Positions 5,374 through 32,466 of a stretch of 34,890 nt of DNA are shown here, one piece after another. Source of the stretch: Deltaproteobacteria bacterium (GTDB lineage: Bacteria; Bdellovibrionota; FAC87; UBA2466). Every line of letters begins with the position of its first letter. Within the stretch, counting starts at the first letter, position 1. The position numbers and the translations under genes were made by a program. The DNA lies in NCBI GenBank assembly GCA_016207775.1, contig JACQOU010000389.1:1-34890 (forward strand), in the 5' to 3' direction. Below the pieces are notes generated by a model, which saw only the letters and a list, made by a program, of their open reading frames with translations, was not told where the DNA came from and did no database searches.

Positions 5374-5389
5374 TGCAATTGGATTGCCA
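5374..5389 (-). promoter_or_regulatory. Putative sigma-54 (-24/-12) promoter for the GHKL ATPase gene.
   Basis: The minus strand reads TGGCAA-tccaa-TTGCA with canonical GG/GC spacing, about 48 nt upstream of the GTG at 5325. Confidence 0.55.
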
Positions 5390-5628
5390 TGTACACTCAA
5401 CACCTAAGAAAGATATCTACGTACTCCCAATTTCCATCAGTACGAGCTGAAAATATGGCAATAAACCGCTGAGTTTAAAAATTAATATGGCGTTTTGGGA
5501 TTCCAATGGGCGGGTGTACGAACGTTGGACAGGTTAAGTGGCAGTATCGACGGCTCATATTGGGCATTTTGGTTCGATTGGTAAAAACTTGGGCGAAAGT
5601 GTGTTGTGTATACACGCACAGTACCTGG

Positions 5629-5644
5629 TGGCAGGCTGTTTGCA
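5629..5644 (+). promoter_or_regulatory. Putative sigma-54 promoter for the OM beta-barrel gene.
   Basis: TGGCAG-gctgt-TTGCA, 33 nt upstream of the ATG at 5678. It lies inside the N-terminal extension of track ORF 5606..6553, which supports the downstream start. Confidence 0.6.
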
Positions 5645-5677
5645 GTAATGCCTTACATATTCCTTAAAGGAGGCCGA

Positions 5678-6553
5678 ATGCAAAAAGTTGCCTTCATTAC
5701 TGCTCTTATTTTGTGCTCCACTTCTTTCACATTTCAAGAGGATGATTTTGTCGTGCAGGTGTCAAAAAGCAATCGAAGCATTGCAATTTCCAAAGGAGAG
5801 GATTCTGGCTGGCGAGCACAAGATAGGTTTTATGTGATGCGTGGCAAACGAAAGATTGCCGAAGGGCATGTTGTCAGAATTGCTTCCAGTAGGGTTTTAG
5901 CATCTGTTGATTCCGTGAAAGCGCGAATCAATCCAGGCGACGAGGTGGTACGTCTGGATGAATCCCTGCATGAAGGACACTCGACTGCAAATTACCCAGA
6001 CTTTCGATTGGGTATTCACATGGGGTGGGCTGCTGGCGCAAGCTCGTCGAACACAAGTGGCACTACGAACAGCATTAGCGGGATCACAACGAGCTCCAGT
6101 GCGAGTGCCGCGTTTTTGGGAGGATTAAGTGGAGAAGTCCGTCTTTTGGAAAATAACTTATTTTTCCAGCCAGAACTGTACTATTCCCCAAAAGGAAGTA
6201 TCAGCGCAAACGTTTCTATCCCGACGGATTATGGAACTTTCAGTGCCAACGGAAGCACCAGTTCAATGACCTATCTCGAATCTTATTGGGGATTAAAAGC
6301 CCGGTTGAATAGTTTTATCGATCCTTACATCACCGCAGGTCCGCAGCTGAGTTTTTTGCTCAGCGGCGGTAATAATGCACGCAGCATTCTGTTTGGTTTG
6401 GGCGCTGGGGGTGGATTGGAAATTGGATTGGGGAAATCCGTTTCACTGTCTTTTGCCGCACGCTATGTGCTTGGCCTGACGAATACCGTCGAAGGTTCGG
6501 ATTCCAAGTCCAACACCTTCCATTGGCTATTGGGCGTCCAGTTTCCTCTCTAA
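5678..6553 (+). CDS. Outer-membrane beta-barrel domain protein.
   Basis: The ATG at 5678 is preceded by AAAGGAGG. Signal peptide MQKVAFITALILCSTSFT, a small N-terminal domain, and a Ser/Thr-rich linker (SSSNTSGTTNSISGITTSSSAS). The C-terminal region has alternating-hydrophobic strands and ends FHWLLGVQFPL. Confidence 0.7.
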   Translation: MQKVAFITALILCSTSFTFQEDDFVVQVSKSNRSIAISKGEDSGWRAQDRFYVMRGKRKIAEGHVVRIASSRVLASVDSVKARINPGDEVVRLDESLHEGHSTANYPDFRLGIHMGWAAGASSSNTSGTTNSISGITTSSSASAAFLGGLSGEVRLLENNLFFQPELYYSPKGSISANVSIPTDYGTFSANGSTSSMTYLESYWGLKARLNSFIDPYITAGPQLSFLLSGGNNARSILFGLGAGGGLEIGLGKSVSLSFAARYVLGLTNTVEGSDSKSNTFHWLLGVQFPL

Positions 6554-6568
6554 GAAATACCTGACCAG

Positions 6569-9672: not shown

Positions 9673-10173
9673 CTAGTGATGGGTCCGTCCGTGGTGCCTC
9701 CCTCTTCTTTCTTCATCTTCTTCTTCCGGCCAACGAAGCTCTCGTTTCCGGTAGCTTCCCTCTTCTCCCTCTTCCTCGTCCTCGATGCGACTTCTTGAAC
9801 GACTGTGGCGAGGCAGCTCCTCCTCGCTCCACCGAGAGCGTCCACCCTGACGCCCGATCTCCTCGTAGAATTCAGGTCCTCGTTCGCGAGCGACGGTTTC
9901 CCCGCCTTTGCGCCCGATGTCCTGATAGAACTCCCTTCCTCTTTCCCGCGCGACGGTTTCCCCGCCTTTGCGTCCGATCTTCTCATAGAATTCACGGCCT
10001 CTTTCCCGCGCGACGGTTTCACCCCCTTTGCGGCCAATTTCCTCGTAGAATTCGGGTCCTCGTTCGCGCGCGACAGCCTCCCCCCCTTTGCGACCGGCTT
10101 CTTCTACAGTCATCCGGCCGCGGCCGCGCCGTAAACGGGGTTCATCGTATGCTGCAGATCCTCGTTTAGCCAT
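9673..10173 (-). CDS. KGG-repeat stress-induced protein (YciG/GsiB type).
   Basis: Four and a half 20-aa repeats of GRKGGE(A/T)VARERG(P/R)EFYxxI. I moved the start to the ATG at 10173, which follows AGGAGG (rc of 10181..10186). Charged low-complexity C-terminal tail. Confidence 0.85.
   Translation of the reverse strand: MAKRGSAAYDEPRLRRGRGRMTVEEAGRKGGEAVARERGPEFYEEIGRKGGETVARERGREFYEKIGRKGGETVARERGREFYQDIGRKGGETVARERGPEFYEEIGRQGGRSRWSEEELPRHSRSRSRIEDEEEGEEGSYRKRELRWPEEEDEERRGRHHGRTHH
9829..10095 (-). repeat. In-frame 60-bp tandem repeat (about 4.4 copies) encoding the KGG repeats.
   Basis: Units 9901..9960 and 9961..10020 are nearly identical. Units 9841..9900 and 10021..10080 are slightly diverged. 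Period is exactly 60 bp. Confidence 0.9.
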
Positions 10174-10185
10174 TCGTAATCCTCC

Positions 10186-10223
10186 TTGTGCCATTGGTGC
10201 TACCTTGTGCCATTAGTGCTACC
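10186..10223. repeat. 19-bp tandem duplication in the KGG leader region.
   Basis: ttgtgccattggtgctacc (10186..10204) is followed directly by ttgtgccattagtgctacc (10205..10223), with one mismatch. It abuts the KGG gene RBS. Confidence 0.85.
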
Positions 10224-10294: not shown

Positions 10295-10310
10295 TGCAAC
10301 GTTGGTGCCA
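10295..10310 (-). promoter_or_regulatory. Putative sigma-54 promoter for the KGG gene.
   Basis: The minus strand reads TGGCAC-caacg-TTGCA, a perfect match to the TGGCAC-N5-TTGCW consensus, about 120 nt upstream of the ATG at 10173. Confidence 0.7.
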
Positions 10311-10320
10311 CCGCAGATCT

Positions 10321-10336
10321 TGGCATTTTGATTGCA
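10321..10336 (+). promoter_or_regulatory. Putative sigma-54 promoter for the FAD/Rieske oxidoreductase gene.
   Basis: TGGCAT-tttga-TTGCA, 136 nt upstream of the ATG at 10473. Its -24 element lies 10 bp from the -24 element of the opposing promoter. Confidence 0.65.
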
Positions 10337-10472
10337 TTTACAGGCAAGGAACGGTCCGTGCGAGAAGTTACTTTGTTGCATTAGGCAATCCTCACCGGAC
10401 ATTGGATATAGCGGATGCGAAACGGGCAAAAAGCGAGCGAGGCGGATAAGAAGAAAGGCGGGAGGTAAACTT

Positions 10473-11993
10473 ATGAATAAGCCACTTTGGGCGGATGGGC
10501 GTGAGAGTTACGGATTTCCCCGTCTTGAGCGCAAATGCATTACCGAAGTTTGTGTGGTTGGAGCAGGAATTGCTGGACTAACGACCGCTGTTCAACTGGC
10601 ACGTGCTGGAAGAAAAGTCGTGCTCTTGGATAAAGGTTCTATTGCTGGGGGCGAAACAGGATGCACAACTGCCCACATTACAGAAGTGCTTGATATGCGC
10701 TACGCAGATTTGATCAGTAAATTCGGTATGGAGAATACCCGCCAGGTACGGGCTTCCAGCAGAGCGGCCATGGATTTGATTGCTCAGTTCGTGAAGGAGC
10801 TTAATATTCAATGTGCTCATCAATCTTTGTCAGGGTACCTTTACACTGAGCTGGAAGAGGATGTCGGCGAATTGGAGGATGAACTTGCTGCCATGGAATC
10901 GGTTGGCATTGAGGCACACCTAAAGAGTGAGATACCTCTTCCCTTTCCGATTAAGACCGCAATCGAGATTGCTGATCAGGCGCAATTTGACCCACTCGCC
11001 TATTGTTCTGCGCTCGCAGAGGAAGTCATCCGTCATGAGGGACACATTTTCACGGATACTGCAGTGAAAAACGTTCAGGATCGGCAACCGTGCATCGTTC
11101 AAACGGGCATGGGCGAAGTCATAGCAGACGCTGTAGCGATTTGCACTCATGTGCCTGTAATTAATCGATTGTGGATACATACGAAAATAGCGCCCTATCG
11201 CAGTTATGTCGTTGCAGCACCGATTGAGGGGCTCGGTGATCCTCCAAGCCTTTTTTGGGATACGGCTCAACCCTATCACTTTACTCGAATGCAAAAGAAG
11301 AATGGGACGATGTATTTAATAGTCGGCGGTGAAGATCATAAGACCGGTCAAATAGAAGATACGGCCAGTTGCTATTTCAGACTTCGAGAGTACCTCTGGT
11401 CTCGCTTTGGTATACGACAACCTCAGTTTCAATGGTCAGGGCAAATGATTGAGCCTATCGACGGGCTTCCTTTTATTGGCAAGAACGCCTTTTCCCAACA
11501 AGTCTACATTGCTACCGGTTTCTCGGGCACTGGGATCACCTTTGGTACACTCGGCGGAATGTTAATCGCCGAGGAAATACTTGGAATTCAAAATAGCTGG
11601 CAGGAGCTCTTTCGAGCCACTCGGAAAAGCACTGTGGCCGGTTCAGTGAATTTCATTAGTGAGAATGTTGATTACCCGATCAACGTCGTTAAACAACGCT
11701 TGGAATCCAGGCCGACGGCCAATGAAGTGAATGTAGATGAGGGCAAAGTGGTTTATAGAAATGGCAAGAAGATAGCGCTTTACCGAAAGCCATCTGGAGA
11801 AGAAATCGCCCTGTCGCCGGTCTGTACTCATCTCGGCTGTTACGTTAACTGGAATAACGCTGAAAAGACGTGGGACTGCCCGTGCCACGGCTCCCGATTT
11901 AGCGTCGAGGGGCAAGTGATCAACGGTCCAGCTACTGCAGCCCTTGCGCCTGACACATCAGATTGGGAGGAACCTGGAGATAAAGTGGCCTAA
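10473..11993 (+). CDS. FAD-dependent oxidoreductase fused to a C-terminal Rieske [2Fe-2S] domain.
   Basis: Dinucleotide-binding VCVVGAGIAGLTTA at the N-terminus and Rieske CTHLGC...CPCHGSRF at the C-terminus. The ATG at 10473 is preceded by GGGAGG. The track start at 10332 is an upstream TTG that overlaps the promoter. Confidence 0.85.
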   Translation: MNKPLWADGRESYGFPRLERKCITEVCVVGAGIAGLTTAVQLARAGRKVVLLDKGSIAGGETGCTTAHITEVLDMRYADLISKFGMENTRQVRASSRAAMDLIAQFVKELNIQCAHQSLSGYLYTELEEDVGELEDELAAMESVGIEAHLKSEIPLPFPIKTAIEIADQAQFDPLAYCSALAEEVIRHEGHIFTDTAVKNVQDRQPCIVQTGMGEVIADAVAICTHVPVINRLWIHTKIAPYRSYVVAAPIEGLGDPPSLFWDTAQPYHFTRMQKKNGTMYLIVGGEDHKTGQIEDTASCYFRLREYLWSRFGIRQPQFQWSGQMIEPIDGLPFIGKNAFSQQVYIATGFSGTGITFGTLGGMLIAEEILGIQNSWQELFRATRKSTVAGSVNFISENVDYPINVVKQRLESRPTANEVNVDEGKVVYRNGKKIALYRKPSGEEIALSPVCTHLGCYVNWNNAEKTWDCPCHGSRFSVEGQVINGPATAALAPDTSDWEEPGDKVA

Positions 11994-12091: not shown

Positions 12092-12107
12092 CGGCATAAA
12101 GGTTGCA
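12092..12107 (+). promoter_or_regulatory. Putative sigma-54 promoter for the membrane protein gene.
   Basis: CGGCAT-aaagg-TTGCA with GG/GC spacing conserved, 36 nt upstream of the ATG at 12144. Confidence 0.5.
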
Positions 12108-12143: not shown

Positions 12144-12761
12144 ATGCCTGAACAGGTTTATACTACAGCTGGATCCTTGAGGAGAATTTATTGGAGTGTA
12201 GTCTTTACGGGTGTGCTAACGGCAATGGCCACGTGGTGGCTTGGGACCGCGTTGGGTGGAGCACTGGGTCTGACCTTCGATACCGACATGAAAACTTTGG
12301 GTACTGCTGGAGCAATTTGGATCGTCTCGGTTAGTTTGATTGCGATGTATCTGGGAGGTTTTGCGGCGGGAAAGTATCTGGATTTTCATGGTCGTACCGA
12401 TTCTGTTATTTATGGAGTGCTGATCTGGGCTATGCTTTCAACGTTTTTGATGGCTCTTGATTGGGCGGGCGCCTCCTCCTTAGGCATGACTACGTTGTTT
12501 GGCGTAGCTAACGACTCACGTGTAGCTCTCTCTATTGACGAGATCTCACTTAACCTGAATTTATCGCCGGAGCAAACCGAGCAATTGCGGAACAATTTGA
12601 GGGATCTCACTCCATCTACGGTCCTAGGCGGCTGGGCAACCTTCGGTGGCATGCTGCTGTCACTGCTCGTTGCAGGATGGGGCGTGTGGTCCGGCATGCG
12701 AAGTACGACGAGGTGGTTGAGCAGAACGGAATTCATCCCACCGGATCGACGGGCTGCTTAG
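12144..12761 (+). CDS. Integral membrane protein, unknown function.
   Basis: The ATG at 12144 is preceded by GAGGAGGAG. There are four to five hydrophobic helices (e.g. IYWSVVFTGVLTAMATWWLGTALGGALG, AIWIVSVSLIAMYLGGFAAG). No family recognised. Confidence 0.65.
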   Translation: MPEQVYTTAGSLRRIYWSVVFTGVLTAMATWWLGTALGGALGLTFDTDMKTLGTAGAIWIVSVSLIAMYLGGFAAGKYLDFHGRTDSVIYGVLIWAMLSTFLMALDWAGASSLGMTTLFGVANDSRVALSIDEISLNLNLSPEQTEQLRNNLRDLTPSTVLGGWATFGGMLLSLLVAGWGVWSGMRSTTRWLSRTEFIPPDRRAA

Positions 12762-12776: not shown

Positions 12777-12792
12777 GGGCATGACGCTTGCA
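12777..12792 (+). promoter_or_regulatory. Putative sigma-54 promoter for the CBS-pair gene.
   Basis: GGGCAT-gacgc-TTGCA with GG/GC spacing conserved, 99 nt upstream of the ATG at 12892. Confidence 0.5.
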
Positions 12793-12891: not shown

Positions 12892-13362
12892 ATGTCACTG
12901 CAAAACCTACTTACAAAAAAACTCATATCATGTTCGCCCTCAAGTTCGATACAGATGGCAGCTGGCCTGATGGAGAAAGAAAACGTTGGCGCTGTTGTAA
13001 TCGTTGGTGAAAGGGATGGAGGGCCCGTTGGTATCGTTACGGACAGGGATATTGCCATTCGCTGTGTAGCGCGAGGGATGGATGCCAATCAAAATGTTAG
13101 TGAGGTCATGACAACAGAGGTTGAAACCGTAAGCGACGATGAGGGGATCTATGACATTATTCACACAATGAAACGCAGTGAAGTCCGAAGAGTTCCGGTT
13201 GTAGACAAAGCGGGCAAATGTATCGGTCTTCTTTCGTTTGGAGATGTGTTTGAGCTTCTGGGCAGGGAACTTAGCGATCTATTACCGGTCACTGCCCCAG
13301 AAAAACCAAAGCTTGTTAAACAATCGGTTGAAACCCGTTTCAAAGCAGAGGCCCATGGCTGA
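12892..13362 (+). CDS. CBS-pair domain protein.
   Basis: Two CBS motifs (VGAVVIV..GIVTDRDI and VRRVPVVDKAGKCIGLLSFGDV). The ATG at 12892 is preceded by AAGGAGAA. Confidence 0.85.
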   Translation: MSLQNLLTKKLISCSPSSSIQMAAGLMEKENVGAVVIVGERDGGPVGIVTDRDIAIRCVARGMDANQNVSEVMTTEVETVSDDEGIYDIIHTMKRSEVRRVPVVDKAGKCIGLLSFGDVFELLGRELSDLLPVTAPEKPKLVKQSVETRFKAEAHG

Positions 13363-13383: not shown

Positions 13384-13833
13384 TTATGAAAGCGCGAGCA
13401 TGTAAGCCAAGTCGTCCAAATGTGTCTTAATGAGTGGAAGGAGCTCAAAACGAATGACTCTTTTCATCTCTGCCCTAAAATCGTCGCTTGCAAGCACTAG
13501 CTCATAGTCTAGCTGACAACGCTCTTCTAACTCTTTGAGAGCCTTCAAGGCCATGGGATCGGTTGTAGGGTTACCAGAAATCTCAACGACCACTGCCAGG
13601 TAACTGCAGTCATCATCATCCGATCGCTCCGTCAGCTGAACCCCTTCTGGCAGCAGCTCTGATAACTTGGCAAGAGCAAGCTTGTGATCCGCCAAAATTT
13701 TGCTCATCAAAGGGGAGCCTTCGGTGCCGTTTTCTCGAGATACGACACTGGCATACGCTTGCTCTGCACAAGTTTCGCTGTGCAGGAGACTGCATAGCTT
13801 TTGGTGTTCAAATTGGTCAGCAACTGCTTTCAT
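13384..13833 (-). CDS. Hypothetical helical protein, possibly four-helix-bundle stress protein-like.
   Basis: 149-aa ORF with an AAAGGAAG RBS. Composition looks predominantly helical. No motif recognised. Confidence 0.6.
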   Translation of the reverse strand: MKAVADQFEHQKLCSLLHSETCAEQAYASVVSRENGTEGSPLMSKILADHKLALAKLSELLPEGVQLTERSDDDDCSYLAVVVEISGNPTTDPMALKALKELEERCQLDYELVLASDDFRAEMKRVIRFELLPLIKTHLDDLAYMLALS

Positions 13834-13860: not shown

Positions 13861-13876
13861 TGCATTAGTCATGCCA
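13861..13876 (-). promoter_or_regulatory. Putative sigma-54 promoter for the 149-aa gene.
   Basis: The minus strand reads TGGCAT-gacta-ATGCA, 27 nt upstream of the ATG at 13833. This would give a short leader that still includes the RBS. Confidence 0.55.
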
Positions 13877-13965
13877 CTTACTAACGCTTTTTGCCCGCTT
13901 CGCATGTGCTCTACTCCAAAAACCTGTTTAGTAAACAAAGCGGACAGATGATATAACTCTTCCTT

Positions 13966-16176: not shown

Positions 16177-16818
16177 TTACGCTACTCCCGATTGCCGAGG
16201 GAAATGATTTACCTTCGCTTTGTTAAACCGCTCCGAGACCTCTGCCCAATTCACCACTTCCCAGAAAGCCTTCACAAACTCAGCTCTGCGATTGCGGTAT
16301 TTCAGGTAGTACGCATGTTCCCACAGATCGAGCAGAAAAACAGGGTGACAGTTTTTTAATAACGGAGTGTCTTGATTGGGCAAAGATTCTGCAATGAGTT
16401 CTCCCTCCGGGTTAACGGAAAGCCAAGCATAACCACTGCCAAAGTGCTTAATTGCAATTTCTGAGAAGCGTTCCTTAAATTGTGAAAAACCCCCAAAGGT
16501 GGCGTCGATACGATTAGCCAATTCACCAGTGGGACTAAGACCTTTGCGTGGAGATAACGTGCGCCAGAACAGACTATGAGTGTAATGCCCGCCTCCTTGG
16601 TTCCGGACATCATTTCTTATAACAGCAGGAACGTCGTCCAGTCTGCTCAGCAACTCCTCAATAGGAAGCTTTTGCAGGTCGGAATATTTGCTCAAGATTG
16701 TATTTATTTTTTCTACGTAAGTCTTATGGTGCCCTTTATGATGAACTTCCATTGTTTCTTTATCGATTACGGGCTCCAATGCATCGTAGGCGAATAGCAA
16801 CTCAGGCAGCGAATACAT
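16177..16818 (-). CDS. sodA: Fe/Mn-family superoxide dismutase, Mn-type signatures.
   Basis: LPELLFAYDALEPVIDKETMEVHHKGHH and DLWEHAYYLKYRNRR. GGGHYTHSLFW and PNQDTPL resemble the Mn-type discriminating positions. GAGGAGG RBS. Confidence 0.9.
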   Translation of the reverse strand: MYSLPELLFAYDALEPVIDKETMEVHHKGHHKTYVEKINTILSKYSDLQKLPIEELLSRLDDVPAVIRNDVRNQGGGHYTHSLFWRTLSPRKGLSPTGELANRIDATFGGFSQFKERFSEIAIKHFGSGYAWLSVNPEGELIAESLPNQDTPLLKNCHPVFLLDLWEHAYYLKYRNRRAEFVKAFWEVVNWAEVSERFNKAKVNHFPRQSGVA

Positions 16819-16889: not shown

Positions 16890-17198
16890 TCATGCAACTT
16901 TAGCCTGCTGAGGAATTTTTCTCATGGGCTTTTCACAGCACATCGGTTGCTTTTCCACCTTCTCTGTAGCCAACGCGGTAGAACCGCATTCTGGACACTC
17001 ATACATTGTTTTCGACTCCGCAACCACCTTTTCTTTCTTCCAGTGTTTGCCTTTCATATACTCTCCCTCTGCCTTTGCCCAGCACACAACAAATTTGTTT
17101 AATCTTAATTTATCGGCCTTCGTCGACTGCAGAAGTCCCAACAACTCTCCTGTCAAAGGCCTAGGGAGATTTAAAAGAGCTGTTGTATTAGCATCCAT
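16890..17198 (-). CDS. Small protein with a C-terminal desulforedoxin-type Cx2Cx15CC metal site.
   Basis: The C-terminus YECPECGSTALATEKVEKQPMCCEKPM has exactly the Cx2C-15-CC spacing of desulforedoxin and the Dfx N-domain. The roughly 64-aa N-terminal part is unrecognised. An alternative start (MKGKHW, at 17057) is possible. Confidence 0.55.
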   Translation of the reverse strand: MDANTTALLNLPRPLTGELLGLLQSTKADKLRLNKFVVCWAKAEGEYMKGKHWKKEKVVAESKTMYECPECGSTALATEKVEKQPMCCEKPMRKIPQQAKVA

Positions 17199-17255: not shown

Positions 17256-17271
17256 TGCATTTCGAGTGCCA
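17256..17271 (-). promoter_or_regulatory. Putative sigma-54 promoter for the Dx-like gene and probably sodA.
   Basis: The minus strand reads TGGCAC-tcgaa-ATGCA, 57 nt upstream of the ATG at 17198. Confidence 0.6.
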
Positions 17272-17413: not shown

Positions 17414-17638
17414 TTAAACGACCCAGTTTAAGAACCAACGTGCAATATTGATGATCATTCGTCGTTTTTGGGCAGGCATCACAGAAAATACAATCCCTAA
17501 CCCAAAAGCAGCAGTCAAAGACAGATACGGGTGCAGTTTCAGTGTTTCAACTGGGATGTTTTTCTCGGAGATTGCTCGCAATCGTGCTTTTGCCTGTTCA
17601 AGGCTCAGCGCGCCAGTTTTTGCAAGGTCCATACGCAT
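17414..17638 (-). CDS. Small membrane protein, YqjK-like by position (tentative).
   Basis: 74-aa ORF with an N-terminal helical segment and one C-terminal TM (YLSLTAAFGLGIVFSVM). It is the third gene after the DUF883 and YqjE-like genes and overlaps the upstream gene by about 30 nt. Confidence 0.5.
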   Translation of the reverse strand: MRMDLAKTGALSLEQAKARLRAISEKNIPVETLKLHPYLSLTAAFGLGIVFSVMPAQKRRMIINIARWFLNWVV

Positions 17639-17880
17639 CCTCCTGCCAACACGAGCAGTATCCCGGCTGCAACCAACGCACCAGTCATTTCACCATGGTA
17701 GAGCACGGTTTCACGATAGATAGCGCGAATGAAGATTGCAAATGCACCGATGACTGACCCGAGCAAGATGATAGCGACACCTGCTGTTAAGCTTCTGCGA
17801 ACCAAACTTTTGCGCAGCAGTCTCACCTCAGCCTCAAATAGATCGGACACTGCTAAAATTACTTCGACTAAGGCTTTCAC
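17605..17880 (-). CDS. YqjE-like / 'phage holin family' small membrane protein.
   Basis: 91 aa with two TM helices (LTAGVAIILLGSVIGAFAIFI and ALVAAGILLVLAGGCVW). It sits directly after a DUF883 gene, as in enterobacterial yqjD-yqjE-yqjK. Confidence 0.6.
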   Translation of the reverse strand: MKALVEVILAVSDLFEAEVRLLRKSLVRRSLTAGVAIILLGSVIGAFAIFIRAIYRETVLYHGEMTGALVAAGILLVLAGGCVWTLQKLAR

Positions 17881-17938
17881 GATTCCCTACCTTTAAGTCA
17901 GGTAAACCTACGTATCGTATCTACAACCGACCGGACAG

Positions 17939-18259
17939 CTAAGCACTCTTCTTGTGAAGTAATTTTCCTGCAATAAGGCCGATGCCGAAGGCGGCCGTCA
18001 TAGTGATCACCGGATGCTCTTCAATCTGGCGCCTTGCTTCACCGATGAGTTTCTGCGTTTCCCGTGTGCCGGTTTTCAACATGTCCTTTAGCGTCTCAAC
18101 CTCCTTACCAAGCTCTTCCTCAAGCTTTTCCCTAGCCTCTTGCGCTTCAACCTTTCCCAATTCCACAATCCCATGAGCAATGCCATTAAGTCCCTGTCGG
18201 ACTCTTGTCATTGCGTCCCTAATTTCACTGGTTTCCCTTGTTGCAAAAGCATGCCTCAT
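17939..18259 (-). CDS. DUF883 family (ElaB/YqjD/YgaM-like) tail-anchored stress protein.
   Basis: Charged helical body with a C-terminal anchor (HPVITMTAAFGIGLIAGKLL). I moved the start to the ATG at 18259, which follows GGAGAA. Confidence 0.75.
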   Translation of the reverse strand: MRHAFATRETSEIRDAMTRVRQGLNGIAHGIVELGKVEAQEAREKLEEELGKEVETLKDMLKTGTRETQKLIGEARRQIEEHPVITMTAAFGIGLIAGKLLHKKSA

Positions 18260-18322: not shown

Positions 18323-18338
18323 TGCAATGGGTATGCCA
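18323..18338 (-). promoter_or_regulatory. Putative sigma-54 promoter for the DUF883 trio.
   Basis: The minus strand reads TGGCAT-accca-TTGCA, 63 nt upstream of the ATG at 18259. It lies in the intergenic region shared divergently with the HK/NtrC genes. Confidence 0.65.
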
Positions 18339-18463: not shown

Positions 18464-19372
18464 ATGCGGAAAAGCCAAACTCGTTGCAAGCTTTCGCAGA
18501 TTGATCCCCCCACTGAATTCAAATGGGCAGCTTTCTACGAAACAACAGCTGATGGTCAAGCTAACCAAGCTCTCACAAGGGAAATCAAAGATCGCGTTCG
18601 TGCAGAGGACGAGCGGAAGCGGGCAGAAATGGAGTTAAAGCGGCAGGCTCAGGAACTTGCTCGCTCGAATGCGGAGCTTGAATCTTTCGCCTCGATTGCC
18701 TGTCACGAACTTAAAGAACCCTTGCGGTCAATTGCCACGTATGTCCAGCTCTTGTTAAGTCGCTATAGAGGACAATTCGATAAGGATGCAGATACTTTTT
18801 TGGACTTTGTGGCGGATGCTGCAAAGCGATCCCAAAGGCTTATCGATGACCTTTTTGCTTATTCACAAGTTGTCGGGGAACCACCGGAAATAGAGTTGGT
18901 CGACGTGAACATGTTGCTGAGGCAAGTGCTCAACAATCTTAAAGTAATGATTGATGAGAGTCGGGCCACTGTTAGTTACGATCCCTTACCCAGCGTCTTG
19001 GCCGACTCCACGCAGCTGAGTCTAGTGTTTCAAAACTTGCTCAACAATGCGATAAAGTTTCGATCAGCGGCTAATCCGATTGTCCATATTTCTGCGAAAC
19101 GAAGAGAAAACGATTGGGTCTTCTCGGTAAGTGACAATGGAATTGGTATCGACCTCAGTAATAATGCAAATGTAAACCGGATGTTTCGGATCTTTCATAG
19201 GCTGCATCCTGTTGGAGCTTATCCAGGAAGCGGGATTGGGCTCGCAATCTCTAAGAAAATCATTGAAAGGCACGGCGGTACCATCTGGGTGGAATCCAAA
19301 CCAGAAGAGGGATCCACTTTCTATTTTGCGATTCCCCATAATGGCAACAATGCAATTTGCCCTATTGGGTGA
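18464..19372 (+). CDS. Soluble histidine kinase without a recognisable sensor domain.
   Basis: H-box SIACHELKEPLRSI, N-box NLLNNAIKF, and G-boxes SDNGIGI and GSGIGLAISKKI. Only about 60 aa plus a coiled coil precede the H-box. No TM segment. Confidence 0.85.
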   Translation: MRKSQTRCKLSQIDPPTEFKWAAFYETTADGQANQALTREIKDRVRAEDERKRAEMELKRQAQELARSNAELESFASIACHELKEPLRSIATYVQLLLSRYRGQFDKDADTFLDFVADAAKRSQRLIDDLFAYSQVVGEPPEIELVDVNMLLRQVLNNLKVMIDESRATVSYDPLPSVLADSTQLSLVFQNLLNNAIKFRSAANPIVHISAKRRENDWVFSVSDNGIGIDLSNNANVNRMFRIFHRLHPVGAYPGSGIGLAISKKIIERHGGTIWVESKPEEGSTFYFAIPHNGNNAICPIG

Positions 19373-19524: not shown

Positions 19525-20991
19525 ATGGATCGCAGACAAATTGAAGTGCTTGTTGTGGACGACGAACAAGCAACCTGTGAGTTTGTGGGTAGCCTCTTGA
19601 AAAAACATGGGTATGAGCCAGTGCTTGCGTTGAGTTTGAGTGACGCTGAGAGGTTGTTAGATCAAAAGTACTTCCCAATTGTTGTCTCAGATGTGGAATT
19701 GGGCGGTCCAGAAAGCACCACTTTGCTTCATCATATTAACCGACATAATCGCCCATCGCTGGTCATTTATATTACCGGCCAGGCGAGCATTGAGAGTGCT
19801 GTCAAAACCATTCACGAAGGCGCTTTCGATTACATTAGCAAACCCTATGAGCTAAGTGAGATTGAGGTCCGCCTCATCGACGTGGTTGAGAAAGCGATCC
19901 AACATTTGGAAATATTGTCGATACAAGACAATCTGAGTGTTGGTCCGCTTTCGACTATTCCCCGTACGATTGTTGGTAAATCGCCGCCGATGGCAGAGAT
20001 TTACAAAATGATTGCGAAGGCAGCTTTGTCTAGTGATACCGTCCTTATTACAGGCGAGAGCGGGACAGGCAAGGAGTTGGTGGCTAGAGCGATACACGAC
20101 AACAGCGACCGCGCAAAAAATCCTTTTGTTATTGTGAATATTTCGTCCATAGTGGAAACGCTTTTAGCATCTGAACTGTTTGGCCATGTTAAGGGGTCAT
20201 TTACTGGGGCGGTCAGCAGCAAGCGCGGACTGTTCCAGGAGGCGAACCAGGGCACTCTTTTTCTTGATGAAATTGGCGATATCTCCCCAGCTGTGCAGGT
20301 GTCGCTTCTGCGTGCAATCCAGGAGGGGGAGATCAAACCTGTTGGAGGTACAGAGACTCACAAAGTCGATGTACGTATCATTACGGCTACGAACAAAAAC
20401 CTGGACGCGTATGTGAAGGAAGGGAAATTTAGGGAGGACCTGTACTATCGGCTGAAAGTCATTGTGATAGAAATGCCTTCTCTGCGAAAAAGAAAAGGCG
20501 ATATTCCGGATCTTGTTAATTATTTTCTGAGCCGTTCCGCTCAGAAAAGAGGGAAGAAGGTCACGACCATATCGAGAGAGGCCTTGGCTATGCTGCAGGC
20601 TTACTCCTGGCCAGGCAACATTCGGGAACTCGAGAATGCTATTGAGAGGGCAGTTGCTCTTTCGAACACCTCGATGCTATACGCAGAAGACTTTCCGAAG
20701 GAAATACGAATGCCCTCTGAAACTTCTATTGAAAAAGAACTGACTGCGGCATCCGAGCAGGATTCGCCCATATATTCTTTGGAACAAACGGAAAAATCAC
20801 ACATTATAAGGGCGCTGGAGAAAATGAATTTCAATAAAGCCAGGACGGCTGAGCTTCTTGGAATTGATAGGGTTACCCTTTATCGGAAGATTCGTCGATT
20901 AGGAATTCCTTTACGCCCATCTTCTTTTTCTGCCAGCCTAGAGCCCCTGGTTCGAGAACCAGTACTTCGAGAGCCAGTACAAAATAAGTGA
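19525..20991 (+). CDS. NtrC-family sigma-54-dependent response regulator (enhancer-binding protein).
   Basis: Receiver domain (VLVVDDE...VVSDVEL). AAA+ sigma-54 interaction domain (GESGTGKE; GSFTGA, the GAFTGA loop; LFLDEIG; RIITATN; FREDLYYRL). Fis-type HTH (ARTAELLGIDRVTLYRKIRRLGI). GGAGG RBS. Confidence 0.92.
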   Translation: MDRRQIEVLVVDDEQATCEFVGSLLKKHGYEPVLALSLSDAERLLDQKYFPIVVSDVELGGPESTTLLHHINRHNRPSLVIYITGQASIESAVKTIHEGAFDYISKPYELSEIEVRLIDVVEKAIQHLEILSIQDNLSVGPLSTIPRTIVGKSPPMAEIYKMIAKAALSSDTVLITGESGTGKELVARAIHDNSDRAKNPFVIVNISSIVETLLASELFGHVKGSFTGAVSSKRGLFQEANQGTLFLDEIGDISPAVQVSLLRAIQEGEIKPVGGTETHKVDVRIITATNKNLDAYVKEGKFREDLYYRLKVIVIEMPSLRKRKGDIPDLVNYFLSRSAQKRGKKVTTISREALAMLQAYSWPGNIRELENAIERAVALSNTSMLYAEDFPKEIRMPSETSIEKELTAASEQDSPIYSLEQTEKSHIIRALEKMNFNKARTAELLGIDRVTLYRKIRRLGIPLRPSSFSASLEPLVREPVLREPVQNK

Positions 20992-24496: not shown

Positions 24497-24517
24497 GACG
24501 TCCTTGCGAGCAAAGGG

Positions 24518-26194
24518 CTAGTGGGGGTGCTCCAGCAGAGCTTTGAGGGCCTCAGGATTAACCGGTTTTTCCAGTTGGCCTGAAATGCCGGGTACCCAAG
24601 AAGACTGGAATGTTCCGGAAAGCAAGAACACTTGCGGGGTTGGTTTCAGTGAAGCGGCCAACAAACTGAAGTCCTTGACACTCGTATCGGTCGGTTCCGT
24701 CTGTACGTCAGTGAAGATGACGTCAAAGCGTGTCCCAGAATCAAACAAAGCAATGGCCTCCCTCCGAGAACCTACACTTTGAACATCATCATATCCGATT
24801 AAGCGCAAAGCCATGGTCAGCATACGTTGTTGCATCACGTGATCATCGATCACGAGAATTTTTTTCGTGGCCACTGGCTTACCGGAATCCGTTCTAACGG
24901 GAGGTAAAGGACGCACCTGTACGACGTCCTCCACGTAACCGGGCAACAAAAGGGTAAAGGTACTTCCCTCATTTTGAACTGTGTTCACCTCTATCCATCC
25001 GCCTTGCCGCTTCACAAAATCCAAAACTGAACAAGTGCCAACACCCGTTCCGCCCGATTCAGGCCTTCCGGTATATCCCGTAAAGAGCTTTTGCAACGTC
25101 TGAGGATTCATTCCCTGACCTTTATCGGACACTGAAATCGCCAAGAAAGCGCCAGCCTCTAACGTCTTGCCGGGTACAACAATTCGTTGCGTATTGGTTG
25201 TGATTTCGTGGGGACTGCCAGTCACCACTCTGACGTCCACAGATATTTCCACTTCCGAGGGCGGACCCCAAGCTTTAGCGTTATCAACCAAGTTGCTGAG
25301 AGCGTCCAACAATCCAGTAACGTTCACGTCCAGAAAAACTGGGCGCTGACTCTTAACGACCACAGGATTTCGACTTAAAAAAGAAATCTCACTGACTAAT
25401 TCGGGAATTTTCACTCTCCTGACAGCTTGGCCTGGAGCTTCTGCTTCTCCCAATATGATTAAACAGGTTCGTCGAGCTAAGCTGAGGTAGGACAACACCA
25501 CTTCTAAGTCTTCGATTATCCGTTTATGAGTGTCCGGGGTCAGACTTGTATTTTTTAACCGGTCCTGTTCCAGTCGGCGAACGGTTGGTTCACCCGATAA
25601 AAGGCGGGTGATGCTTTCTGCGTATTCATCCGCAAGTTCCTCAAGTTTGGGCAGTACTCCATTTAAGTAATTTCGCAACGTATGGATCTGATCCAGCAGG
25701 CGTTCCTTTTGGTCAGGGTCAGCGAGAGCGAGCGCATGGTGTCGTGCCTTCATGAGTGCCACGCGCACTGGACCTATGGCACTGGGATCGGTGGGATCAT
25801 AGATAGAGTTCTTCTTGGGGGGAGCCAGAAAGTCCCGCTTAAAGTAAGCCAAAGGAGCGACCAAGTAGTAGAGGTTCCGTCCGGCCACAACGTTTTTTTC
25901 GTTCTGGTAGAGGTAGTCCGAAAGTGTCAAATAGACCTGTAACAAGGGTGCAAGTAAATTTCCAACGTAGCTCTGAGCGAGTTCGATGTCCCCTTGTGCT
26001 GAGATGGTTCCTGGGCAAACATTCAAATCATCAGGTTCGGGAGGGCCGCCGTATGCCGATGGGGTATTGCCATACGCACGTCCGAAAGAGGCACCGAGAA
26101 CCCATGTGATAGAAAAGATAATGAAAATAGACCTTAAGGGCTTCAGGCTGAGGTGCTTGGCAAGCGGTACTGAATGTTGGGTATTAGCCGTCAT
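24518..26194 (-). CDS. Atypical hybrid kinase-like protein: N-terminal hydrophobic anchor, helical region, HATPase domain, C-terminal receiver.
   Basis: N-box-like LSNLVDNAKAWG, then SDKGQGM and GGTGVGT. Receiver domain KKILVIDDH...DVIFTDVQ...EKP. I see no canonical H-box (HExxxP) by eye. N-terminus is LRSIFIIFSITWVLGASFG. Confidence 0.7.
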   Translation of the reverse strand: MTANTQHSVPLAKHLSLKPLRSIFIIFSITWVLGASFGRAYGNTPSAYGGPPEPDDLNVCPGTISAQGDIELAQSYVGNLLAPLLQVYLTLSDYLYQNEKNVVAGRNLYYLVAPLAYFKRDFLAPPKKNSIYDPTDPSAIGPVRVALMKARHHALALADPDQKERLLDQIHTLRNYLNGVLPKLEELADEYAESITRLLSGEPTVRRLEQDRLKNTSLTPDTHKRIIEDLEVVLSYLSLARRTCLIILGEAEAPGQAVRRVKIPELVSEISFLSRNPVVVKSQRPVFLDVNVTGLLDALSNLVDNAKAWGPPSEVEISVDVRVVTGSPHEITTNTQRIVVPGKTLEAGAFLAISVSDKGQGMNPQTLQKLFTGYTGRPESGGTGVGTCSVLDFVKRQGGWIEVNTVQNEGSTFTLLLPGYVEDVVQVRPLPPVRTDSGKPVATKKILVIDDHVMQQRMLTMALRLIGYDDVQSVGSRREAIALFDSGTRFDVIFTDVQTEPTDTSVKDFSLLAASLKPTPQVFLLSGTFQSSWVPGISGQLEKPVNPEALKALLEHPH

Positions 26195-26497: not shown

Positions 26498-27151
26498 TTA
26501 CTCAGATAATTGACTGGTTACCAGATCCACGGCCATTTGGACCGTTTTTGTTCTTACTTGTTTCATTGACCAGCCGTAATCGCTGGTAAAAAAGTAATGG
26601 ATGTTTCCGGAAATCATCGACTGGACAGCGCGGCTAATCTCTTTGATTTTTGTTTGTGTGAGTTGGCCATTATGGACGAGAACATCCAGGGTAGCGGCAA
26701 TTCGATCCTCCCCTCCCTTTTGGATCACGTTTTGTAGCTGTCTCATATCCTCATCGTGGGTGCAGAGATAGTAGAATAAGGACATTACCGAAAAATGCTT
26801 GGGATACTGGGATAACCATTCAAAGGGGCCATCGATGACGATTTTGAGTCGATCCTTCCAGTGGTTGGCCTTCTTGACGTTACGGATGATAATTTGCTGG
26901 CCAGTTGCCACCGCATAGCGTACCGCCCCTTTAATCAACTCCTTCCGACTTGAGAAGTAGTAGTTCACATGGGCTCTTTCCATGTTGACGATCTTTCCAA
27001 TGGATTCAAAGGTGGTTGCCTCAAGGCCTTGAGTTGCCAGGCAATCAATGACGGCCTCCAGTATCTTAATTTTAATGAGCTCGCTTTTTGTTCGCTTGGT
27101 ATCGAATATCTGAAAGTAAAGGGAGGAGGGAAGTTTTTCGCGGTTGCTCAT
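26498..27151 (-). CDS. TetR/AcrR family transcriptional regulator.
   Basis: N-terminal HTH ATTFESIGKIVNMERAHVNYYFSSRKELI. It starts 39 nt after the stop of the upstream gene, so the two are likely co-transcribed. Confidence 0.85.
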   Translation of the reverse strand: MSNREKLPSSLYFQIFDTKRTKSELIKIKILEAVIDCLATQGLEATTFESIGKIVNMERAHVNYYFSSRKELIKGAVRYAVATGQQIIIRNVKKANHWKDRLKIVIDGPFEWLSQYPKHFSVMSLFYYLCTHDEDMRQLQNVIQKGGEDRIAATLDVLVHNGQLTQTKIKEISRAVQSMISGNIHYFFTSDYGWSMKQVRTKTVQMAVDLVTSQLSE

Positions 27152-31400: not shown

Positions 31401-31950
31401 GTTTTTGAACTCCCTCTATCTCATCGCCAAAGAACTTTCAGAAACCGACTTCGGACGAGGGGTAATCAATCCCAACCAAATTTTTGCGGCTCAAGAAATG
31501 AGCGACTTCTTAAATGTGCTGGTATTAGGCTTTACCGTTCCACTCTTAAAAGAAAAGGACATGGATGCCATTCAAAATGTTGTGAATCCGTTCGGACTAG
31601 AAGTAGCTCCTCGATTTGGTGCAACTCCGTATGTGCTGCAGGGCGGCCCCCGCAAACTCGCATTAGCTTGGGCCAATCGAATTCCAGCGACCAACGGGCA
31701 AGTTGAATTCCTGCGCAATAGGCTTCTTTTCTTCTTGGAACACCGCTGGGGATGGACCGACTCCGATGCCGATGTCATTAACAGATTCCCTAATATCAAG
31801 GTCTGTGAACGATTAGATAGAGCCTTGATGGCTATCGCCACCATTCAAAAGCTTGCTCTCAGGGAACAGGCCACGTTTGATATCCAACGCTTACGCACCC
31901 GAAGGCATTTAGAGGTATTAGCACTTAGTTTGGGTGATGCTTCACAATAG
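28417..31950 (+). CDS. Large SF2 (DEAH-type) helicase with unknown N-terminal region and a repeat-containing C-terminal extension.
   Basis: Motif I HPVASGKT (28975..28998), motif II FDEAHH (29299..29316), LSATF (motif III), VVVDMLNEAVDIP, and motif VI QALGRSSR. About 180 aa N-terminal and 540 aa C-terminal are unassigned. The N-terminus MVVGCPFRLTWLVLLWTVANPCLA is hydrophobic. An alternative start is M44 at 28546. Confidence 0.8.
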   Translation: MVVGCPFRLTWLVLLWTVANPCLAVSVLDAPCPTAIIEKAVGRMPVRLSADDLNQFVRLAVLPVLQETPRNPFSIIQNKAQSSVTLSSPNGDYTFRLTADPSLAYPRHGLPVVIYRGDRLQAEFTVLATHDGDYASMDRVAGIVRSALRAEPITQRKLNLEQIPVLSALLDMEGRTGPGGCWRGVVHPVASGKTFISAKYVQEIRKKLGGQPGWKNKPKVLAVLQNNAGLDHIVQTYSEELGLTKIAKLYDESSQNPTDLASEMIAITRTTYFKRRSEIHALLQADTDQPWVIVFDEAHHLGKNGGQFEKILKGLNKIIDHRHRVLTLSATFWHSDKKLITKYLHGNVVGGFLNPNEQQQLEQGEDLVSLCRLQFYRMIARGYSPPFFGIHMVRSVDGWPASAILGKEFLRSRAVAESLARDIKSRIVGDRRVHVYDRGVLFAPSIDHANLYAELLSKSGLETRALHSETTTKKATLNWFSDKGDFDSEADRKIHKYIVVVDMLNEAVDIPKINMAVLLSPFSMYISGFKELIQALGRSSRPAEGKIDVRIYDYTLHTRWLRDGLSQIMVERPPSNRLQHPVSRTLGLVVIQDDGKEVLRDPVQFNAQYDERFPEDLEFTDRHPCFDVSQFEKWMVPALEHLAFHLGVKNLRAGGAIVDLLTRLTNYLPDLPEKDELLEWLKEADTLKKWDGARILESPPDLYSARRVYEVLYEIARVLEYAPQPTQVDLSRLLDPAELDRLWSALLSYRISALASRKDIQIFLEPETGGLALFMAEAKRQGFVGGPKHDPKNPAKDFCIYLANQAYTHVHSPALRAKLDQLVRDLADDELWGWVQNDGTRDLKEMKTDPSFARPAQKGRNGWERIYAALSALADLLRQTKAKELPKELLSQQDIGKLLDLLISNRSGIYFTAPQFETCRKETLDIVRRRMENFGINNFQLPFSTRTIAVEAAKLLPEGCPNKKALVRYLASDDYGWTKNAGLGIIQGSRLPTEKFLNSLYLIAKELSETDFGRGVINPNQIFAAQEMSDFLNVLVLGFTVPLLKEKDMDAIQNVVNPFGLEVAPRFGATPYVLQGGPRKLALAWANRIPATNGQVEFLRNRLLFFLEHRWGWTDSDADVINRFPNIKVCERLDRALMAIATIQKLALREQATFDIQRLRTRRHLEVLALSLGDASQ
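30322..31947 (+). repeat. Four divergent protein-level repeats (about 110-140 aa each) in the helicase C-terminal extension.
   Basis: Aligned cores are LLEWLKEADTLKKWDGARIL...RRVYEVLYEIARVL; LVRDLADDELWGWVQNDGTRDL...GWERIYAALSALADLL; LVRYLASDDYGWTKNAGLGI...EKFLNSLYLIAKEL; and LLFFLEHRWGWTDSDADVIN...ERLDRALMAIATIQKL. Alignment was done by eye. Confidence 0.55.
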
Positions 31951-31958
31951 CCTTATGT

Positions 31959-32417
31959 TCATCCAGCCTTTCGTGTCTCAGATTCCCAAATCTTTGCCTC
32001 GATGGCCTGCTCAATATATTTAATATGTCGTTGCTCGTCCTGAAAGTTTCTTTCAAGAATTCGTTTGGTACGATCCGGAAATGCTTCCTTCATCGTTCGT
32101 TGATAGTTGCGGTTAGTAAGCAACTCGTTCATCCGCATAGCCTTTAGCGCGCCTGCAGTGCCTGTCATGCTCCGAATCGCAGTGAAACCTTCGATAAAGA
32201 ATCCTTTGAGATCACGTGCTCTCTCGTGAGGTATTCCCCCTAAGGTGCGCACCTCAGATGACAACTCCTGAATGTGTCGCTCGTGATCAGCTTTAAAACC
32301 TGAAAATTTATCTTTCACCTCATCCAATTCAACATTATCGATGGCCTGCGAATAAGCCAACACTGCATCATAGTCGAGCTGTATGAGGCTGTTTAATCGA
32401 TCAATCTGGTTTTTCAT
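31959..32417 (-). CDS. Ferritin-like four-helix-bundle protein (DUF2383/YciE-like stress protein type).
   Basis: MKNQIDRLNSLIQLDYDAVLAYSQAI...ADHERHIQEL...FQDEQRHIKYIEQAI (paired ExxH-type helices). The ATG at 32417 is preceded by GAGGAGG. The track ORF starts 15 codons upstream, over the promoter. Confidence 0.7.
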   Translation of the reverse strand: MKNQIDRLNSLIQLDYDAVLAYSQAIDNVELDEVKDKFSGFKADHERHIQELSSEVRTLGGIPHERARDLKGFFIEGFTAIRSMTGTAGALKAMRMNELLTNRNYQRTMKEAFPDRTKRILERNFQDEQRHIKYIEQAIEAKIWESETRKAG

Positions 32418-32450
32418 GGCTACCTCCTCAATCAATACGGTAGACGAAGA

Positions 32451-32466
32451 TGCAATGGCCATGCCG
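32451..32466 (-). promoter_or_regulatory. Putative sigma-54 promoter for the ferritin-like gene.
   Basis: The minus strand reads CGGCAT-ggcca-TTGCA with GG/GC spacing conserved, 33 nt upstream of the ATG at 32417. Confidence 0.5.

Follow-up and report, generated by a model that had tools for sequence, protein, structure and literature searches.

The stretch of DNA analysed here (the window, 34,890 nt of one contig, JACQOU010000389.1, of a Deltaproteobacteria bacterium of the Bdellovibrionota lineage) is a singleton in a collection of 5.8 billion proteins, and its intergenic DNA carries ten copies of the motif GGCA-N7-TGCA, in the form of the -24/-12 promoter of sigma-54 (RpoN). We hold it to be likely that these ten motifs are genuine sigma-54 promoters, each heading a short unit (some 13 genes in total), that most of those units encode protectants, and that a local NtrC-type activator, which we propose for that role, governs them. 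The gene model combines the list of open reading frames (ORFs) with Pfam matches and with start codons preceded by a Shine–Dalgarno (SD) sequence, and leaves 4179 of the 34,890 nt (12%) as non-coding. The GC content is 48%, the genes have strong SD sequences of the AGGAGG type, and scans of the window with Rfam and for tRNAs gave no matches. All ten sites had been pointed out in a preliminary description made from the sequence alone; they are present where that description had placed them and on the strands that it gave, and they are, as it had claimed, both intergenic and sense-oriented, 10 of 10 lying within the non-coding 12%.

We designate the promoters P1 to P10 in the order of their positions, and give each with the gene that it is predicted to drive. 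P1 (TGGCAATCCAATTGCA; 5374..5389, minus strand) precedes by 48 nt the GTG start, with an SD, of the gene at 4621..5325 (minus), which encodes a HATPase_c_2 (RsbW-type) protein (PF13581, E = 3.9e-14) with a signal-peptide-like N-terminus (VKLVFLSFFIVVALA). P2 (TGGCAGGCTGTTTGCA; 5629..5644, plus) is situated 33 nt from the ATG, with the SD AAAGGAGG, of a gene for an outer-membrane beta-barrel protein (OMP_b-brl_2; 5678..6553, plus; PF13568, E = 2.2e-11). P3 (TGGCACCAACGTTGCA; 10295..10310, minus) and P4 (TGGCATTTTGATTGCA; 10321..10336, plus) stand back-to-back, 11 nt apart. The former heads, with a leader of 121 nt, the gene for a hydrophilic KGG-repeat or LEA_5-like protein (9673..10173, minus; PF10685, E = 3.4e-21; PF00477, E = 9.7e-11), the body of which gene contains at 9851-10096 about four tandem repeats of 60 nt (20 aa), LEA_5 being a plant family. 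The latter lies 136 nt from the ATG, with an SD, of a gene for a FAD-dependent (DAO) oxidoreductase fused to a Rieske 2Fe-2S domain (10473..11993, plus; PF01266, E = 6.9e-48; PF00355, E = 4.1e-14). Within the KGG leader, at 10184-10223, a 19-nt unit occurs twice and duplicates a pseudo start, ATGGCACAAGG.

P5 (CGGCATAAAGGTTGCA; 12092..12107, plus) is followed after 36 nt by the ATG, with the SD GAGGAGG, of the gene for a 205-aa predicted membrane protein (12144..12761, plus) that has hydrophobic segments and no significant match in Pfam or NCBIfam, and P6 (GGGCATGACGCTTGCA; 12777..12792, plus), after 99 nt, by the SD-preceded ATG of a gene for a CBS-pair protein (12892..13362, plus; PF00571, E = 5.7e-27, in two stretches). 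P7 (TGGCATGACTAATGCA; 13861..13876, minus) lies 27 nt from the ATG, with an SD, of a gene for a 149-aa protein (13384..13833, minus) without a family match. P10 (CGGCATGGCCATTGCA; 32451..32466, minus) precedes by 33 nt the ATG, with the SD GAGGAGG, of the gene for a ferritin-like four-helix-bundle protein (DUF2383/PA2169; 31959..32417, minus; PF09537, E = 6e-17; TIGR02284, E = 9.8e-9). The 149-aa protein aligns weakly to this ferritin-like protein (25% identity over 117 aa, E = 0.034) and is possibly a distant relative of it, to judge from that alignment; its structure model was unusable (mean pLDDT, the predicted local distance difference test, of 45), and searches of PDB sequences with it and with the DUF883-like protein described below returned no useful match.

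The two remaining promoters head more than one gene each. P8 (TGGCACTCGAAATGCA; 17256..17271, minus) precedes the gene for a small Cys-rich protein resembling a zinc ribbon or desulforedoxin (Dx) (16890..17198, minus), whose Pfam matches are weak (DUF7129, E = 8e-4; Desulfoferrod_N, E = 0.038) and whose start codon is ambiguous: the closest ATG lies 57 nt from the site and has no clear SD, an SD-preceded ATG is found 198 nt downstream, and the protein is possibly only 55 aa long, with its start at 17057. The gene for the Fe/Mn superoxide dismutase (SOD), sodA (16177..16818, minus; PF02777, E = 3.9e-37; PF00081, E = 1.8e-26), follows 71 nt downstream of the zinc-ribbon gene, and with no sigma-54 site within that 71-nt gap, sodA is probably co-transcribed from P8. 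P9 (TGGCATACCCATTGCA; 18323..18338, minus), which is divergent from a kinase/activator operon, heads a trio of genes (17414..18259, minus) for a tail-anchored DUF883/YtxH-like protein (17939-18259; DUF883_C, E = 0.037 and DUF883, E = 0.15, both sub-threshold), a YqjE-like membrane protein (17605-17880; PF07332, E = 0.0026, below the Pfam threshold), and a YqjK-like protein (17414-17638), the last assigned by gene order. An EHP motif and a hydrophobic tail with a glycine zipper (GxGIGxxxG) at the C-terminus are typical of tail-anchored proteins of the ElaB/YqjD type. The DUF883-like protein ends in precisely such a sequence, which is conserved in its homologues on three related contigs (L090, L091, and L093, considered below), the L093 homologue matching DUF883 with E = 0.0045.

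Nine of the sites have an SD-preceded start at 27-136 nt from their TGCA, and the claim in the preliminary description of such a start some 30-140 nt downstream thus held for those nine and less clearly for site 8. That description was also right in noting that certain sites fall within the N-terminal extensions of the longest ORFs: such is the case with sites 2, 4, 5, and 10, in the ORFs beginning at 5606, 10332, and 12036 and, on the minus strand, at 32462.

Throughout the window, both strands considered, GGCA-N7-TGCA occurs 12 times, as against 1.39 +/- 1.22 expected from 100 dinucleotide-preserving shuffles, among which the maximum was 5 and none reached 12. The 4179 nt of non-coding DNA hold 10 of the 10 listed sites with 0.17 expected (Poisson P ~4e-15). 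The two extra matches lie antisense within sodA (16379, plus) and within pntB (21385, plus), and represent chance level; both read CTGCA, unlike the TTGCA or ATGCA of the listed sites. When the spacing was varied as GGCA-Nx-TGCA with x = 2-13, the non-coding DNA contained 10 sites at x = 7 and 0-1 at each other x. A matrix made from the ten sites gave them scores of 16.6-23.1 bits and the next-best sequence in the window, which is coding, 12.7 bits, a test that is circular in that the matrix was built from the sites it scored, yet whose score distribution is clearly bimodal. The preliminary description had suggested comparing such matches with coding and antisense DNA and with shuffled sequence, and a matrix scan of the window, and the results agree with it. 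Of the 11 positions that the consensus TGGCAY-N5-TTGCW specifies, every site matches 10-11, with the GG and the GC exactly 10 nt apart. Moreover, the four sites located between co-directional genes (5, 6, 8, and 10) are all sense-oriented, and in the divergent intergenic regions every site faces its nearer gene. The sequences flanking the ten sites are mutually unrelated, so that the sites are not copies of one repeat.

The genes that have an intergenic region but no sigma-54 site before them are housekeeping or regulatory ones: those for an aldo-keto reductase, RecD2, a single-domain response regulator, a hybrid kinase, a TetR regulator, and a large helicase, along with pntAAB and the kinase/activator operon itself. 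A weak eleventh sigma-54-like sequence (TCCGGCGGCCCGGTTGCAAG; 822-841, plus), a GGCG variant of 9 bits, precedes a doubtful ORF of 135 aa, with which one of 348 aa on the opposite strand overlaps, and is probably not functional. Consensus matches to -35/-10 promoters of the sigma-70 type numbered 7 between 4000 and 20000, below the chance level of 16.6 +/- 3.7 in shuffled sequence, and the consensus of its housekeeping promoters may not be that of E. coli; terminator-like hairpins were likewise not enriched in that interval (12 vs 17.3).

The operon divergent from the trio consists of two genes. The upstream one encodes a short cytoplasmic histidine kinase of 302 aa (18464..19372, plus; HisKA and HATPase_c) with no recognisable sensor or transmembrane domain; the downstream one encodes a response regulator of the NtrC family, a sigma-54 activator of 488 aa (19525..20991, plus; PF00072, PF00158 with E = 1.5e-68, PF25601, and PF02954) and the sole gene of that kind in the window. 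The regulator possesses a receiver domain (REC, with D56), an AAA+ domain with the Walker A sequence GESGTGKE and the loop GSFTGA, an AAA lid, and a Fis-type helix-turn-helix (HTH) domain (HTH_8); the receiver residues D12, D13, D56, and K106 are invariant among the aligned homologues. In L091, about 7 kb upstream of the activator gene of that contig, an 811-aa multi-PAS kinase is encoded whose C-terminal half shares 49% identity with the window kinase, a resemblance that suggests a truncated, input-less version in the window. Also near this island, at 24038-26194, are genes for a stand-alone receiver protein and for a hybrid HATPase_c/REC protein without a recognisable HisKA domain. Because the spacing is strictly that of -24/-12 promoters, the motif is asymmetric, sense-oriented, and confined to intergenic DNA, and an activator and a kinase are encoded in the window itself, we read the ten sites as sigma-54 promoters; this part of the preliminary description is supported by those same features, by the agreement with the consensus, and by the motifs of three related contigs, to which we now turn.

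The closest homologues of the activator among the 5.8 billion proteins were P0242 (56% identity), P0246 (55-56%), P0248 (54-55%), and P0257 (52-53%), the window activator itself having no exact entry there. The related metagenomic contigs L090, L091, and L093 were available as DNA and the 138-kb contig of P0248 (JGI 3300071358) as proteins only. In all three loci with DNA the activator gene directly adjoins the trio (annotated in these relatives as a small protein, a PF07332 protein, and an apolipoprotein-like protein), and in the P0248 contig it is likewise close to it; the second and third proteins of the trio measure 91 and 74 aa in the window versus about 135 and 200-224 aa in the relatives. 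The KGG gene is divergent from the activator gene in L091 and L093. The neighbourhood of P0248 includes OMP_b-brl_2 followed by DAO/Rieske, two hemerythrins, trehalose-synthesis genes, and DUF4142, as well as an ATP-dependent DNA ligase, DJ-1/PfpI, AhpC, and a CBS-containing protease.

The promoters recur together with the genes. A sigma-54 motif precedes the trio in 3 of 3 loci (L090 at 11814, L091 at 11635, and L093 at 11580) and the KGG gene in L093 (9666) and, as the near-match GGCG-N7-TGCA, in L091 (9694); a DUF1328 gene in L093 and other small genes in the relatives are preceded in the same manner. In total, GGCA-N7-TGCA was counted 5 times in L093 against 0.46 expected, 4 times in L090 against 0.42, and twice in L091 against 0.44, the last count not being significant alone (8 of 100 shuffles reach 2); L090 and L093 each have 4-5 sigma-54 sites within 10 kb of the activator gene. 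The motif is also found upstream of the activator gene itself in L091 (9998-10012, plus), in L093 (9846-9860, plus), and, as a GGTA variant, in L090 (9783, plus), which suggests a positive autoregulation of the activator in these relatives. The activators of the genomes sharing this wiring are only 53-67% identical to each other; the conservation of the activator and the trio, and in part of the KGG gene, along with their predicted -24/-12 promoters, is evidence of the phylogenetic-footprint type that the sites are functional. At the end of contig L090 (17806-19928), a 290-nt unit is tandemly repeated 7.4 times with 90% matches.

The FAD/Rieske homologues of 46-50% identity (L081-L084), which come from Planctomycetota-like and other genomes, lack both synteny and an upstream sigma-54 site; since these distant orthologues have no such sites, the sigma-54 wiring does not come with that gene family as such. 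The homologues of RecD2, up to 70% identical (L085-L089), exhibit no synteny with stress genes. On the contig with the closest of these (L085, 70% identity), a 602-aa gene without a Pfam family is preceded at about 25 nt by a perfect sigma-54 motif, TTGGCATTTAGCTTGCAC (6362, plus), and sigma-54 may be densely used throughout this lineage. A scan of the GTDB genomes with the activator retrieved generic NtrC paralogues of at most 47% identity, none with the stress genes of the window nearby, the homologues of characterised type in that scan being about 40-46% identical. The named homologues of RecD2 and of the activator belong to metagenome-assembled genomes (MAGs) of 'Deltaproteobacteria' and Bdellovibrionota, with which the GC content and the strong SD sequences of the window agree. 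An origin in the Bacteroidota, initially suggested by an S46 peptidase and by OMP_b-brl_2, was rejected on the grounds that the SD sequences are strong at every gene, SD use being low in that phylum, and that the named homologues belong to other groups.

As to the enhancers, or upstream activating sequences (UAS), through which such an activator would operate, the relatives furnished one candidate: a sequence GyrAAAnGCATCAG located 70-190 nt upstream of five sigma-54 sites, belonging to the trio, to the KGG gene, and to a 125-aa gene (L091, 11538-11551 plus and 9881-9894 minus; L093, 11495-11508 plus and 9730-9743 minus; L090, 3216-3229 minus), whose information content of 12.33 against a null of 10.82 +/- 0.15 is partly inflated by the relatedness of L091 and L093; this sequence we consider a candidate enhancer of the conserved activator. 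In the window upstream regions no NtrC-like dyad UAS was found, and the sequences CGGGCAAA and ACGGCAAA were dropped as enhancer candidates because their enrichment was not convincing. The sequence CAAAAAGCG is enriched in the window (6 copies vs 0.79 expected). Two copies are contained in an inverted pair of 29 nt and 86% matches, TATAGCGGATGCGAAACGGGCAAAAAGCG (10407-10435, plus; 13885-13913, minus), both members of which fall in intergenic regions where sigma-54 promoters are also present; the other copies are at 17323-17331, 27082-27090, and 33878-33886 on the minus strand and at 34707-34715 on the plus strand. The offsets do not agree from one promoter to the next (about -38 at P7, -80 at P8, and -145 at P3), and CAAAAAGCG may be a site of the activator or of another regulator. 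At P3 and P4, which are back-to-back and have leaders of the lengths given above, any enhancer for either promoter must therefore sit in the leader of the other.

When these features are compared with known systems, the nearest resemblance is to those of the NtrB/NtrC type (NtrC, ZraSR, AtoSC), which share with the window the architecture of a REC domain, an AAA+ domain with a GAFTGA-type loop, and a Fis-type HTH, the adjacent kinase, and the presence of several -24/-12 promoters over neighbouring operons; the sigma-54 site before the activator gene in L091 and L093 also recalls the autoregulatory logic of glnALG and zraSR. The differences are that the targets here are protectants instead of genes for nitrogen, zinc, or acetoacetate, that the kinase has no sensor domain, and that no NtrC-like dyad was found in the upstream regions. 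In the psp, rtc, nor, and zra stress operons, sigma-54 and a dedicated AAA+ activator keep expression off until needed. The systems PspF-psp, RtcR-rtcBA (an example that appears in PMC9879122 and PMC7790460), NorR-norVW, and ZraR-zraP are accordingly similar to ours in that a sigma-54 activator gates a stress function, but each has one or two promoters and responds to one specific stress, whereas at least ten promoters with heterogeneous protectants are present here. The Borrelia cascade Rrp2-RpoN-RpoS (cited in PMC3162934) places an NtrC-type response regulator and sigma-54 atop a stress and adaptation programme, with the difference that sigma-54 there fires essentially one promoter, that of rpoS, with RpoS doing the rest, while in the window the sigma-54 promoters are directly on the effector genes.

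With respect to content, the comparison is with the regulons of sigma-S in E. coli, sigma-B in Bacillus, and EcfG/PhyR in the Alphaproteobacteria, whose effectors overlap with those of the window: KGG proteins (YciG/GsiB), DUF883 proteins (ElaB/YqjD/YgaM), YtxH-like and ferritin-like proteins, and SOD. Those regulons depend on sigma-factor availability or on partner switching; the window set, as predicted, depends on sigma-54 and on ATP hydrolysis by a phosphorylated response regulator. The trio has a counterpart in E. coli yqjCDEK, where we take the gene order yqjD-yqjE-yqjK to match that of the window, with DUF883-like, YqjE-like (PF07332), and YqjK-like proteins in succession and a C-terminal tail anchor on the first, although the identities are low, the Pfam matches of the window trio lie below threshold, and the promoter is of the sigma-54 and not of the sigma-S class. 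A preprint describes YqjD, ElaB, and YgaM as tail-anchored ribosome-inactivating proteins (bioRxiv 10.1101/2024.08.16.608256), and ElaB is reported to be regulated by RpoS and OxyR (PMC6389858). Hydrophilin, DUF883/YtxH, ferritin-like, and reactive-oxygen-detoxification functions, the effector content of a general-stress set, are all represented in the window, DUF883/YtxH by sub-threshold matches, and the promoters belong to the -24/-12 class instead of being under sigma-70-family control; the set may thus work like a general-stress set while lying outside the sigma-S, sigma-B, and EcfG regulons, as its sequence would indicate.

The survey of Carrera-Reyna et al. (2025; PMC12316311) is the closest antecedent, being likewise computational, devoted to non-model phyla, and linking sigma-54 to stress proteins: in Planctomycetota and Bacteroidota the authors predicted sigma-54 promoters for the genes of chaperones and proteases, and in Planctomycetia for those of Usp and MscS. 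It differs from the present work in the families (GrpE/GroES/HSP90/Clp/Lon, UspA, MscS) and in the phyla; it reports no island of clustered promoters that has a two-component activator of its own, and superoxide, ferritin, and general stress are absent from its text. The large comparative study of Francke et al. (PMC3162934) assigns general stress to sigma-S and sigma-B and lists nothing like this set. In the literature searched we encountered no account of KGG, DUF883, ferritin-like, and sodA genes jointly under sigma-54 promoters, nor one of a multi-promoter sigma-54 island of protectants of the general-stress type. The novelty that the preliminary description had attributed to such an island consequently stands with respect to that literature, but must be tempered, since sigma-54 on single stress operons is textbook matter and the 2025 survey already predicts stress-gene promoters. 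The parts are standard, namely -24/-12 promoters and a two-component activator of the NtrC family; what would be new is a multi-promoter sigma-54 regulon, conserved in an uncultured clade, with a content like that of the sigma-S, sigma-B, or EcfG regulons.

The best reading of all these data is probably a conserved sigma-54/two-component regulon of stress protectants, in which the control of the adjacent trio by the local activator, and probably that of the KGG gene, are reasonably supported by the conserved arrangement; that the same activator would serve all ten promoters, that the inducing signal would be stress or dormancy, and that rpoN exists in this genome are presumptions of the same reading. 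Several results weigh against it. The ORFs scanned in this 34.9-kb fragment, one contig and not a genome, include no rpoN and no Sigma54 domain. Neither k-mer counts nor an expectation-maximisation (EM) motif finder, applied to nine upstream regions, revealed an enhancer motif that all ten promoters would share, the best EM motif having in the window an information content no higher than in shuffled sequences, and the GyrAAAnGCATCAG of the relatives is not present as such in the window, nor has it a convincing counterpart there. With regard to the stress content that the preliminary description had assigned to the set, the KGG/LEA_5, SodA, CBS-pair, and DUF2383/PA2169 ferritin-like proteins are above the thresholds of Pfam or NCBIfam and uphold the assignment; DUF883, YtxH, YqjE (these supported by architecture and gene order), and Dx are below them, and in four units, those of P1 (HATPase_c_2 protein), P2 (outer-membrane barrel), P4 (FAD/Rieske enzyme), and P5 (membrane protein), the product is not recognised as having a part in stress. 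The activator P0345, from a different gene context, is 51.5% identical to that of the window, as compared with 53-56% for the trio-linked ones, and because it is nearly as similar, the orthology of the window activator to the latter rests only on synteny and on the identity of the receiver domain (49% for the trio-linked activators vs 39% for P0345); the P0345 locus ('Bdellovibrionota bacterium FG-1', L092) was itself rejected as a stress module, its kinase-activator-NUDIX context being paralogous. Finally, a scan of metagenomes with an alignment of the YqjE-like protein retrieved 80 soil contigs, mostly of 1-2 kb, 65 of them with usable upstream DNA; an upstream sigma-54 motif was observed at just 6 of these 65 trio homologues (0 on the control strand), many of the contigs being too short upstream to contain a site, and the activator gene was on 0 of the 80, from which figures the module is clade-specific and not universal for yqjDEK-like genes.

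Part of this evidence would be accommodated if the promoters were real but formed no single regulon, other activators driving the other units and the local regulator only the trio and perhaps the KGG gene, in which event a 'general-stress island' would over-read a patch of accessory genes. The lack of a shared upstream motif that beats shuffled controls and the four proteins without a stress role are in agreement with that explanation, as are the facts that beside the activator only the trio and the KGG gene are kept in the relatives with DNA and that site 10 is 11 kb past the activator gene, beyond unrelated genes. On the other hand, a span of 27 kb holds ten promoters of one rare class, nine of which fall in 13 kb flanking the sole activator gene of the window; the P0248 contig has OMP_b-brl_2 and DAO/Rieske, CBS, hemerythrin, and trehalose genes around a homologous activator; and in L090 and L093, too, the 4-5 sites are gathered at no more than 10 kb from it. 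We accordingly judge a multiplicity of activators to be rather unlikely, though it is the most serious of the competing explanations. That sigma-54 itself is unseen in the window, the assignment being one of sequence resemblance, would also leave room for a conventional transcription-factor operator, or a variant promoter of the sigma-70 family or of an extracytoplasmic-function (ECF) sigma factor, that merely resembles -24/-12; such an operator would be a dyad, however, while the motif is asymmetric and strictly strand-specific towards the downstream gene, its GG-N10-GC spacing is invariant and its agreement with the sigma-54 consensus nearly complete, an AAA+ activator specific for sigma-54 is encoded beside the sites and conserved with them, and we know of no sigma-70-family promoter whose two elements are just 5 nt apart, so that we regard this possibility as very improbable. 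As for chance, or the composition bias of AT-rich intergenic DNA, the two matches in coding DNA do demonstrate that an 8-base core arises fortuitously; but the shuffles that never reached 12, the Poisson value for 10 sites in 4.2 kb, the virtual absence of intergenic matches at other half-site spacings, and the recurrence of the motif at orthologous positions in other genomes have already refuted this explanation, to which we assign a negligible weight.

Under the regulon that we favour, the RNA polymerase with sigma-54 would bind the promoters as a closed complex and stay silent until a phosphorylated hexamer of the 19525-20991 regulator hydrolysed ATP and thereby opened the promoter DNA, the regulator being phosphorylated at Asp56 by the sensor-less kinase of 18464-19372 or by other kinases. 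The outcome would be essentially no basal expression along with a strong induction, a form of control that would suit protectants that are costly or growth-inhibiting, such as the hydrophilins and a ribosome-silencing protein of the DUF883 type. A bolder extension, which we put forward as a tentative and rather doubtful proposal, is that of a master switch of this uncultured clade, probably related to the Bdellovibrionota, in which sigma-54 and one two-component system of the NtrC type would run the general stress or dormancy programme in place of sigma-S, sigma-B, or EcfG; a direct -24/-12 promoter on each protectant gene would then provide a zero-background, all-or-none response, and a sigma-54-driven autoregulation of the activator, the motif for which was seen in the relatives, could make that response bistable.

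Should the regulon prove true, the same toolbox of protectants would be found under a mechanistically different class of promoter, which circumstance would constitute a regulatory rewiring between bacterial lineages, and the cis-code TGGCAY-N5-TTGCA would predict a stress or dormancy regulon straight from the MAGs of an uncultured clade. It would likewise give a stress context to the 149-aa and 205-aa proteins, to the exported protein with the GHKL domain, and to the FAD/Rieske enzyme. Sigma-54 promoters have no basal activity and require ATP; the decision to produce the protectants would thus be tightly gated and energy-checked, and would bear on the entry of these bacteria into desiccation- or starvation-tolerant states.

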